Of a stretch of 41,397 nt of DNA, positions 33,385-33,517 are shown in pieces (the stretch's first letter is position 1; every line of letters begins with the position of its first letter). The position numbers and the translations under genes are program-made. Below the pieces are notes generated by a model. The model saw only the letters and a program-made list of their open reading frames with translations, searched no databases and had not been told where the DNA came from. The stretch covers positions 1-41,397 of the forward strand of contig JAZOMJ010000067.1 in the NCBI GenBank assembly GCA_045653865.1, read 5' to 3'. Source of the stretch: Eubacteriales bacterium. Its GTDB lineage: Bacteria > Bacillota > Clostridia > Oscillospirales > CAG-272.

Positions 33385-33517
33385 GGCTCCCCTGTGCAAG
33401 GGGAGCTGTCAGTCGACAGACTGACTGAAGGGTTGGTTCTAACTAATAAAAAAGAATGAAATCAACCCTTCCGTCATTTTCTTACGAAAATGCCACCTCC
33501 CCTTGCACAGGGGAGGC
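33385..33517 (+). repeat. Composite double-hairpin unit F (type II arm 33385-33436, 25-nt spacer, inverted type I arm 33462-33517)
   Basis: Sequence: ggctcccctgtgcaaggggagctgtcagtcgacagactgactgaagggttgg, then ttctaactaataaaaaagaatgaaa, then tcaacccttccgtcattttcttacgaaaatgccacctccccttgcacaggggaggc. Confidence 0.88.

Follow-up and report, generated by a model that had tools for sequence, protein, structure and literature searches.

A candidate intrastrand DNA triplex repeat in gut and rumen Clostridia and their phages

The closest described system to the repeat treated here is an intergenic sequence of Escherichia coli that has been named BoxC, PIT (potential intrastrand triplex) and TM_ECO (Hoyne/Maher 2000; Holder et al. 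2015, PMC4666352). As single-stranded DNA, TM_ECO forms a very stable triplex as seen by circular dichroism and nuclear magnetic resonance (NMR), and its inverted pairs always combine a type A with a type B copy, 5 out of 5 in E. coli (PMC4666352). The order of pyrimidine, purine and mirror purine along one strand has been called a "class II intrastrand triplex", and none of the purine-motif triplexes form in RNA (PMC4666352). We have analyzed a stretch of 41,397 nucleotides (hereafter the window), the contig JAZOMJ010000067.1 of assembly GCA_045653865.1 from an Eubacteriales bacterium (Oscillospirales, CAG-272), which carries a pair of inverted arms with this order of blocks between positions 33385 and 33517. 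We consider it probable that these 133 bases are one copy of a high-copy, intergenic and non-coding repeat, a DNA-level element found in Oscillospirales (gut and rumen Clostridia) and in phages.

Read from 5' to 3', an arm of about 50–60 nt contains an 8–9-nt pyrimidine strand, a GTGYA loop and the complementary purine strand (together the 9-bp hairpin 1), followed by a variable GC-rich connector hairpin (hairpin 2), the loop of which is usually a C-GNA-G triloop, and by a purine tail with TTG at its end, in which the purine strand is mirrored. The first loop measures 5 nt, and the connector between purine strand and tail 14–27 nt or more. The original prediction, made from the letters of the window alone, had already recognized hairpin 1, the variable hairpin 2 and the purine tail, and the repeat is real. 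The core CTCCCCT-N5-AGGGGAG (with up to 2 mismatches) appears 13 times in the window versus 0.02 expected, a clean alignment was obtained for 14 window arms, and a covariance model built on arms from other genomes and then run on the window recovered 13 intact arms at 55–77 bits. The two types of arm distinguished in the prediction are also true classes, which differ at one stem pair, where C-G is exchanged for G-C with compensation, and at two positions linked to it. Paired arms in chromosomes usually lie on opposite strands, tail to tail, so that each strand has one triplex-capable arm, and 33385–33517 is such a pair.

In reading order, this unit starts with GGCTCCCCT-GTGCA-AGGGGAGCT, a type II hairpin 1, followed by a 7-bp connector hairpin, the tail TGAAGGGTTG and an AT-rich spacer of about 27 nt. 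The equivalent parts on the opposite strand, with GCCTCCCCT...AGGGGAGGT, make up a type I arm. In the type II arm (covariance-model match 33382–33436, 59.7 bits), the pyrimidine strand GCTCCCCT (33386–33393, plus strand) forms 8/8 Watson-Crick pairs with 33399–33406, flanked by a G·T pair between G33385 and T33407, and closes over the loop GTGCA (33394–33398), kept across the family as GTGYA. The purine strand AGGGGAGC (33399–33406) has at its last position the C that marks type II. The connector hairpin TGTCAGTCGACAGACTGAC (33407–33425), with a 7-bp stem, belongs to the part that varies in sequence from copy to copy with its pairing retained. The tail TGAAGGGT (33426–33433), mirror of 33399–33406, fits the purine-motif triplex code at 7/8 positions and is the predicted reverse-Hoogsteen third strand. 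The AT-rich spacer between the tails, with approximate limits 33436–33462, has only GGTTCTAAC in common with that of the unit at 7250. On the minus strand, the type I arm (covariance-model match 33462–33520, 61.8 bits) is formed by the pyrimidine strand CCTCCCCT (33509–33516), a loop GTGCA and the purine strand AGGGGAGG (33496–33503), that is, a hairpin 1 spanning 33496–33516, then by the connector TGGCATTTTCGTAAGAAAATGAC (33473–33495) and by the tail GGAAGGGT (33465–33472, 7/8 triples). The same connector is found in the arm at 37839–37890 despite the other stem and tail there. Some type II arms have in addition a common 5' extension (T)AAGGGGYTTAYTTWAWWAA before hairpin 1, found at 33366–33384 of the window and in two of the comparison loci (L125, ~9735–9755, and L133, ~1975–1995), which hints at a longer subfamily, or else at another sequence with which the pyrimidine strand could pair.

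For comparison, one genome per species was scanned for the core pattern. The matches listed amount to at least 120 stretches, on which the bacterial counts given here rest, and nearly all of them come from Oscillospiraceae, Acutalibacteraceae, Faecousia, Ruminococcus or unclassified Clostridia/Eubacteriales genomes derived from gut and rumen metagenomes. In these loci nhmmer detected 242 arms (window included) and the covariance model 304. The family is genuine and has no name. In the prediction it had not been recognized as any named repeat or RNA family, and the search of the window with the 4227 covariance models of Rfam gave 0 matches at gathering thresholds, and the E-value mode over 33300–34300 returned only chance-level miRNA and snoRNA matches (E above 0.3). 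BLAST of the unit against the GenBank plasmid and phage collections gave one chance match and no match, respectively. Literature searches on REP in Ruminococcaceae and on REPIN/RAYT in Firmicutes returned nothing relevant, and we found no paper that describes the repeat.

Both hairpins covary in Watson-Crick fashion, with 95.3% of the cells of the alignment paired versus at most 52% when the partners were slid. Changes on both sides were detected at 11/17 pairs, one of them the pair whose C-G to G-C swap separates type I from type II; for hairpin 2 the figure was 7/8 pairs. This second hairpin appeared as 180 different sequences, almost all of them folding to stems of 5–9 bp. Its outer pairs are formed by GGCA or GTCA with TGAC, bases that had been read in the prediction as an unpaired linker of 2–4 nt; they are part of hairpin 2.

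The tail follows a different rule. Instead of complementing the purine strand of hairpin 1, it repeats that strand in reverse, and both change together across genomes. Thus, the purine strands AAGGGAGG, AGGGGAGG, AAGGGGGC, AGGGAGGC, AAGGAGGG, GGGAGAGG and GAGGAGGG are accompanied by the tails GGAGGGAT, GGAGGGGT, TGGGGGAT, TGGAGGGT, GGGAGGAT, GGAGAGGG and GGGAGGAG, respectively. In 213 unique arms aligned with a hidden Markov model, the exact mirror column had the top mutual information for all 4 variable stem columns, and 97.7% of the cells obeyed a code in which G goes with G, A with A or T, and C with T (at most 59% in shifted registers). Again in the 280 unique arms aligned with the covariance model, the mirror column was the best of 13 candidates for 5/5 variable columns and 95.8% of the cells obeyed the code, compared to at most 57% in shifted registers. 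We have also used a scan that is blind to sequence and asks for a perfect 8-bp pyrimidine/purine hairpin with an 8/8 tail within 6–45 nt. It retrieved 225 mirror tails in the genomic set, against 6 direct copies, 0 cases of reversed topology and 0 in shuffles; the figures for an independent viral set were 218, 6, 1 and 0. In each of the two sets, 17 distinct stems carried their own perfect mirror tail, and the same connector core was found paired with different stem and tail sets. In the window, the order pyrimidine, purine and mirror is present in all 13 intact arms and in the divergent ones, with triple scores of 7/8 or 8/8. The covariation is three-way, linking pyrimidine strand, purine strand and tail.

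Many arms have four runs of G (e.g., GGG, GG, GG, GGG), and competition between triplex and quadruplex folds is known for G-rich triplex sequences (PMC4666352). Even so, a G-quadruplex or another G-rich structure made by the purine strand and the tail is hardly credible as the explanation. The purine strand covaries with the pyrimidine strand as Watson-Crick pairs, indicating a duplex; the matches of C with T and A with T, as well as the exact mirror register, would be meaningless in a quadruplex; haplotypes like AAGGGGGC with TGGGGGAT have two G-runs only; and NMR excluded a quadruplex for TM_ECO (PMC4666352).

When a purine tract runs antiparallel along the purines of a duplex and its matches are G·GC, A·AT and T·AT, the result is a purine-motif triple helix, and we think that the arm is likely a class II intrastrand DNA triplex motif of this kind (G·GC, A/T·AT, T·CG). 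Symmetric proteins or templated copying would be expected to yield direct or inverted repeats and not mirror repeats. The folding strand would be the one carrying the purine tail, because the G:T pairs of hairpin 2 number 36 on that strand versus 8 on the other, and because there are whole subfamilies with T opposite A-T, which are legal in the purine motif alone. DNA is favored over RNA because purine-motif triplexes do not form in RNA and because the loops of the connectors are those typical of DNA mini-hairpins: 149 out of 235 (63%) are triloops, of which 109 are GNA, nearly all closed by C-G, and there is no UNCG. Such d(GNA) mini-hairpins have exceptional stability in DNA (PMC13037366, PMC3201870). 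We propose that the arm would fold when the purine-tail strand is found as single-stranded DNA. With the chain turned back by the connector hairpin, the tail would occupy the major groove of hairpin 1, run antiparallel to its purine strand and make triples of the kinds G·G-C, A·A-T, T·A-T and T·C-G. The connector starts one base past the purine strand and ends at the tail, so that it might stack under the purine·purine pairing. That the triplex actually forms is suggested by analogy with TM_ECO, which folds in this way in vitro.

Regarding the layout of the arms in chromosomes, we found 62 tail-to-tail pairs, 55 of which combined type I with type II, together with 12 head-to-head pairs and 14 tandem pairs. 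The heterotypic unit of type II, spacer and inverted type I is the dominant chromosomal arrangement, in agreement with the composite unit of the original prediction, but it is not the sole one, as the window itself has three head-to-head pairs of type I arms and a solo arm at 34168–34212. Dense clusters of arms, similar to BIME clusters, were seen in L010 (4117–5740, where divergent genes enclose ~20 arms in 1.7 kb), L009 (781–1912, with a period of 453 nt) and L029 (1713–2519).

The prediction also proposed that arms and spacer of one unit belong to the same subfamily and that the whole unit is the thing copied. The correlation between stem, loop and tail is real, but its cause is a constraint within the arm, where the tail mirrors the stem. 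Copying of complete units does not agree with what we found: hairpin 2 differs between units assigned to the same subfamily, their spacers share only 6–9 nt, identical connector cores go with different stem and tail sets, and the two arms carry different stems in 25 of the 38 distinct units elsewhere. When the tails of the units were compared with both stems, they tracked their own stem in 20 units and that of the partner in 1, with 17 ties.

Another claim was that the units are always co-oriented with transcription and replication. This holds for the 4–5 loci of the window, in all of which the type II arm precedes the type I arm, both along the local sense strand and going outwards from the dnaA region. 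It would suit a polar chromosome signal in which transcription, or the movement of the fork from oriC, determines that II comes before I, with the unit folded as a cloverleaf or cruciform. Outside the window the pattern disappears. With genes called by a codon log-likelihood model trained on the Pfam-confirmed genes of the window (and checked on phage genes with PHROGs), co-directional units had type II first in 8 cases and type I first in 14, and there were 10 units in convergent and 8 in divergent spacers. Four out of four in one window is weak by itself (two-sided p = 0.125), transcription and replication are confounded there, and one purine arm on each strand of every unit leaves little net polarity. 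As for the fold, with tools that handle Watson-Crick pairs only, whole units were far more stable than shuffles (z about -11), a point in favor of a polar signal of this type. However, in the minimum-energy structure the two hairpin 1 sequences of a unit pair with each other as an outer helix, together with both copies of hairpin 2 and a helix between the tails, which differs from the predicted cloverleaf of four stem-loops around a central tail-tail helix. Moreover, the pairing between arms is not conserved, with 11.8/16 positions matching between the two hairpin 1 sequences against 15.7/16 pairs within arms, and the tails follow their own hairpin. We find a polar chromosome signal, therefore, very improbable.

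Copies are gained and lost between related species. In the syntenic dnaA-gyrA regions of relatives of our genome (MreD 75–94% identical), the occupancy of equivalent spacers by arms varies. The spacer between mreD and gyrA has the same unit in the window (37766–37890) and in loci L121–L124, a different relative of 230 nt in L125, and is empty (~50–60 nt) in L126, L130 and L133, the last of which has a unit between mreC and mreD instead. The spacers filled by the 230-nt element in L125 contain, in relatives, either no element or the canonical unit. In the mreD-gyrA spacer of L128 (8597–8615) there is a lone hybrid hairpin, GGCTCCCTT-TACAC-AAGGGAGGC, formed by a type II 5' half and a type I 3' half, which looks like the product expected of a deletion of the unit between its two copies of hairpin 1. 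Among the empty sites, the closest belong to species whose MreD is ~78–81% identical, and the filled sites differ from them by more than the unit, so that its boundaries are not fixable from them. No target-site duplications were found flanking 53 units, and clustering of 652 open reading frames (ORFs) from 120 listed loci, in blocks of 8 kb, revealed no recurrent protein family beside the arms. In L125, small genes coding for DUF559 (Vsr-like) and GIY-YIG endonucleases are inserted in the conserved dnaA-gyrA synteny (5702–6076 and 13938–14210), one of them adjoining a head-to-head pair of arms.

This turnover, together with the high copy number, the intergenic location, the alternating orientations, the mosaic clusters and the existence within genomes of arm lineages with common connectors, is what an ordinary palindromic repeat of the REP/BIME or MITE type would show, without any triple helix. 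The tail would then be a copied sequence or a protein site, and its resemblance to the stem would be inherited. We regard this as quite unlikely. Common descent does not predict the exact mirror match in 5/5 columns, over 17 stem haplotypes and in two data sets, nor does it predict tails that follow their own stem in mixed units, and a two-fold symmetric protein would presumably select direct or inverted repeats. Besides, neither target-site duplications nor a transposase were found (53 units and 652 ORFs) and the GTAG head is missing from the arms.

The core is also present in at least 120 stretches of IMG/VR viral contigs (loci L135–L254), where the arms are mostly solo. Among the matches listed, and after removing duplicates, the purine-tail strand of phage solo arms was the template of transcription in 77 cases versus 13, or 26 versus 3 independent phage groups. 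These arms are often located beside portal and major head genes, confirmed as such with PHROGs, and 7 of the 22 well-called arms begin within 7 nt of the upstream stop codon. Bacterial solo arms had no such bias (16 versus 13 with respect to transcription), although 16 were located in convergent spacers and 1 in a divergent one. G-rich homopurine tracts on the non-template strand block transcription, and those on the template strand do not (PMC3561996, PMC5499740). The phage bias fits the avoidance of this harmful, transcription-blocking orientation. As a polar side effect, the arm would be tolerated in heavily transcribed phage operons mainly with its G-rich purine strand as template.

A role in RNA is the other candidate explanation of the phage bias. 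The arms would act in transcripts as stabilizers of 3' ends, processing sites or weak terminators, as REPs do in the mRNAs of E. coli. Phage mRNAs would have the blocks in the order pyrimidine tail, hairpin 2 and hairpin 1, and a pyrimidine-motif triplex (U·A-U, C+·G-C) could bury the 3'-terminal purine strand in the manner of ENE/MALAT1. The phage strand bias, the verified portal and major head genes at the flanks and the closeness to stop codons point in this direction, as do the convergent spacers of bacterial solo arms and the location of all window copies inside or after operons. The hairpins are very stable as RNA, which can form pyrimidine-motif intrastrand triplexes (PMC4666352). Nonetheless, there is no U-tract after hairpin 1 in that sense, and at least 5 T among the following 8 nt were found in just 5/98 viral arms (37/153 in bacterial arms). 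The excess of G:T pairs favors the purine-tail strand as the folding one; the subfamilies with T opposite A, as well as the first and last stem positions (p1 and p8), would be mismatches in the pyrimidine motif, and 5–6 adjacent C+·G-C triples are unfavorable at neutral pH (PMC4666352). Neither chromosomal units (8 versus 14) nor bacterial solo arms show an orientation bias, Watson-Crick hairpins are symmetric between strands and cannot explain the covariation of the tail, and Rfam gave no match. Overall, we judge an RNA-level element unlikely, less so than the other alternatives considered.

Our best guess for the function of the family is a REP-like DNA-level element. The triplex fold would be maintained by selection, most likely through a trans-acting protein that recognizes the arm for its spread or maintenance, by analogy with REP/BIME. 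More tentatively, the hairpin-hairpin-triplex fold of single-stranded DNA might be a selected and functional recognition module for a trans-acting machinery (of mobilization, lagging-strand priming or repair) common to gut Oscillospirales and their phages, with its polarity shaping the architecture of phage genomes.

Several points weigh against the triplex interpretation. For the Clostridia family the fold is deduced from covariation and from analogy, and even for TM_ECO in vivo footprinting with dimethyl sulfate gave no stable triplex (PMC4666352). The main subfamily of the window has one non-canonical triple, its tail GGAAGGG scoring 7/8 against the stem AGGGGAGG. A connector of 14–27 nt far exceeds the loops of characterized intrastrand triplexes, which makes the geometry conjectural, and the end positions (p1, A with T, and p8, C with T) are invariant within types and give little independent support. 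The mobility and the trans-acting partner are purely presumptive, the 652 ORFs having provided no transposase or recurrent neighbor and the units no target-site duplication. The arms also share descent, so the arm counts overstate the number of independent events, something that the number of haplotypes, the comparison within units and the second data set mitigate in part. Finally, the transcription-linked bias of the phage copies could point to a role at the level of RNA.

The window corresponds to the region of the origin, with gidA-gidB, four parS sites, parA-parB and dnaA-dnaN-recF-gyrB-mreC-mreD-gyrA, plus a glycogen operon on the minus strand. Its arms are all intergenic, many of them within operons, and every copy is found inside or after operons. 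Besides 33385–33517, the original prediction placed units of type II, spacer and inverted type I at 37765–37891, 233–369 and 7250–7383, and all of them were confirmed. The first, on the plus strand (37766–37890), has a type II arm at 37766–37810 and an inverted type I arm at 37839–37890, both recovered by the covariance model and both with 8/8 triples. The second, on the minus strand (234–368), has a type II arm at 313–368 (8/8) and a type I arm at 234–283 on the plus strand (8/8). In the third, also on the minus strand (7252–7382), the type II arm at 7335–7382 is intact (7/8) and the type I arm at 7252–7297 is decayed, as had been noted, with hairpin 2 and tail retained and hairpin 1 gone (7270–7302 in the covariance model, E 1.7e-4). 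The head-to-head pairs of type I arms are found between glgP and an amylase gene (2389–2619; arms 2389–2437 on the minus and 2568–2619 on the plus strand, around ~120 nt of unique AT-rich DNA), between glgA and glgP (5503–5681; arms 5503–5552, minus, and 5635–5681, plus) and in a divergent intergenic region (12731–12915; arms 12731–12782, minus, and 12869–12915, plus).

A fifth unit had been proposed at 33889–34118 as a divergent version of the others. The order II-like then I-like, tail to tail, is indeed found there, but this is a related yet distinct element of ~230 nt (33892–34118, plus strand). Its left arm (33892–33934; covariance-model match 33891–33933, E 3.5e-6) has the stem GAGGGAGC and the tail TGAGGGAG with 8/8 triples, and the right arm is a decayed hairpin at ~34100–34118. 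Intact relatives are present in L125 (~9770–9990 and ~10640–10880). In elements of this kind a conserved core with CTCCTTCCGG is enclosed by two inverted triplex arms, one with the stem GAGGGAGC or GAGGAGGG and the opposite one with GAGGGAGG. The solo arm at 34168–34212 (plus strand; a weak covariance-model match, 34164–34215) belongs to a divergent subfamily with stem GGGGAAGG and tail GGATGAGG (7/8), a haplotype with 12 copies across loci.

A second and unrelated repeat family, TTGTAGGGGCG, a loop of 6–10 nt and CGCCC(G), has the anatomy of REPs, i.e., a GTAG head and a GC hairpin. It is found in the window at 5171–5197 (+), 5376–5402 (+) and 5447–5421 (-) and in L019, L020, L040, L062, L078, L098, L102 and L110, often near triplex arms. 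For a partner of the RAYT type, this GTAG-headed family would be a better candidate than the triplex arms. Four copies of a 16-bp palindrome, TGTTTCACGTGAAACA, spaced by 34–37 nt, are located at 19995–20140, after gidA/gidB and directly upstream of parA (20149–20988) and parB (21000–21899). The palindrome agrees with the parS consensus of Firmicutes, so that this is a parS cluster in the region of the origin. A 14-nt tandem repeat, CTTCTTTCTGTATT, with ~3.7 copies, is found at 12130–12181, upstream of a poorly supported ORF (12192–12743, minus). There are also very long antisense ORFs at 34252–36291 (-), 30867–32060 (-) and 7369–8772 (+), opposite gyrB, dnaN and glgD, because of which gene calling by the longest ORF chooses the wrong strand in this genome. 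The window has no transposase among its genes, and a scan of it for tRNA and tmRNA found none. Other readings of the arms were discarded. Intrinsic (Rho-independent) terminators do not apply, with ~3 T after hairpin 1 and no sense-strand arm flagged by a terminator scan; a mimicry of Shine-Dalgarno or anti-Shine-Dalgarno sequences by the type I hairpin 1 is not preserved by the stem variants; and a KOPS/SRS-like polar motif does not agree with the purine tracts on both strands of each unit.

The cellular relevance of intrastrand DNA triplexes has been an open question since BoxC/PIT was described. Evolution is silent about the fold of the E. coli motif because the motif is almost invariant. 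In the Clostridia family, dozens of stem variants each have the matching mirror tail, which argues that selection sees the three-stranded arrangement. If true, this would be the first natural DNA triple helix backed by three-way evolutionary covariation. The family extends triplex repeats to Bacillota, to the dominant anaerobes of gut and rumen and to their phages, and it offers a testable polarity effect, the avoidance of the non-template strand by the purine strand in phage operons. In practice, the arms create spurious small ORFs, can break metagenome-derived assemblies and are candidate hotspots of rearrangement. Repeats of this kind are missed by searches with short loops. The published ones allowed 1–6 nt (ITxF) or 0–10 nt (Hoyne et al.) (PMC4666352) and would have missed the Clostridia family because its connector is longer.

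When compared with known systems, the repeat resembles E. coli BoxC/PIT/TM_ECO in the order of blocks (pyrimidine, loop, purine and reverse-Hoogsteen purine) and in the use of T opposite A-T. Both are G/C-rich and strictly intergenic, have tens of copies or more and no association with gene function. Like in E. coli, where the two types are combined in 5/5 inverted pairs, they are combined here in 55/62. Local gain and loss, partial deletions that leave a hairpin and the lack of promoter or terminator character are also common to both. The differences are, however, clear. The TM_ECO consensus CCCTCNCCC-N3-6-GGGNGAGGG-N3-GGGNGAGGG has 0 matches in the window and there is no sequence similarity; its stems have 9 nt versus 8 in the Clostridia family, and its second loop is of 3 nt instead of a variable hairpin of 14–27 nt. 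TM_ECO belongs to Proteobacteria, is nearly invariant and was not found on mobile elements, whereas the Clostridia arms belong to Bacillota (Oscillospirales), have many stem variants and are abundant, with a strand bias, in phage contigs.

With the REP/BIME/REPIN systems of Enterobacteria and Pseudomonas, linked to RAYT, the arms share being short intergenic palindromes of alternating orientation, with two types paired like the Y and Z REPs, doublets of ~100–150 nt that resemble REPINs, clusters, turnover between species and a presumed folding as single-stranded DNA. Unlike REPs, the arms have no GTAG-type 5' head, their 5' flank being merely A-rich (AAAG), and in the 8-kb blocks examined no RAYT or IS200-like gene was found near any copy. 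REPs do not have a third, mirror-repeat strand, and a separate family with GTAG and hairpin coexists in the Clostridia genomes. MITEs such as Correia/NEMIS, ERIC and RUP are also non-coding, of ~130 nt, with long inverted arms, and are located in operons and intergenic regions and co-transcribed. In contrast, no target-site duplication or conserved termini were found in 53 of the Clostridia units, their two arms are not identical (types I and II, with different connector hairpins), and arms also appear solo, head to head and in tandem. H-DNA and mirror homopurine tracts share with our repeat the homopurine mirror repeat, the G·GC, A·AT and T·AT code and the antiparallel third strand. Nevertheless, H-DNA forms in a duplex mirror repeat under supercoiling and with a short spacer, while in the Clostridia arm the three strands would belong to one DNA strand, folded back twice. 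The Clostridia repeat is thus best described as a hairpin-bridged variant of the intrastrand triplex repeats with REP/BIME-like genomic behavior, and is probably a new relative of E. coli BoxC/PIT/TM_ECO.

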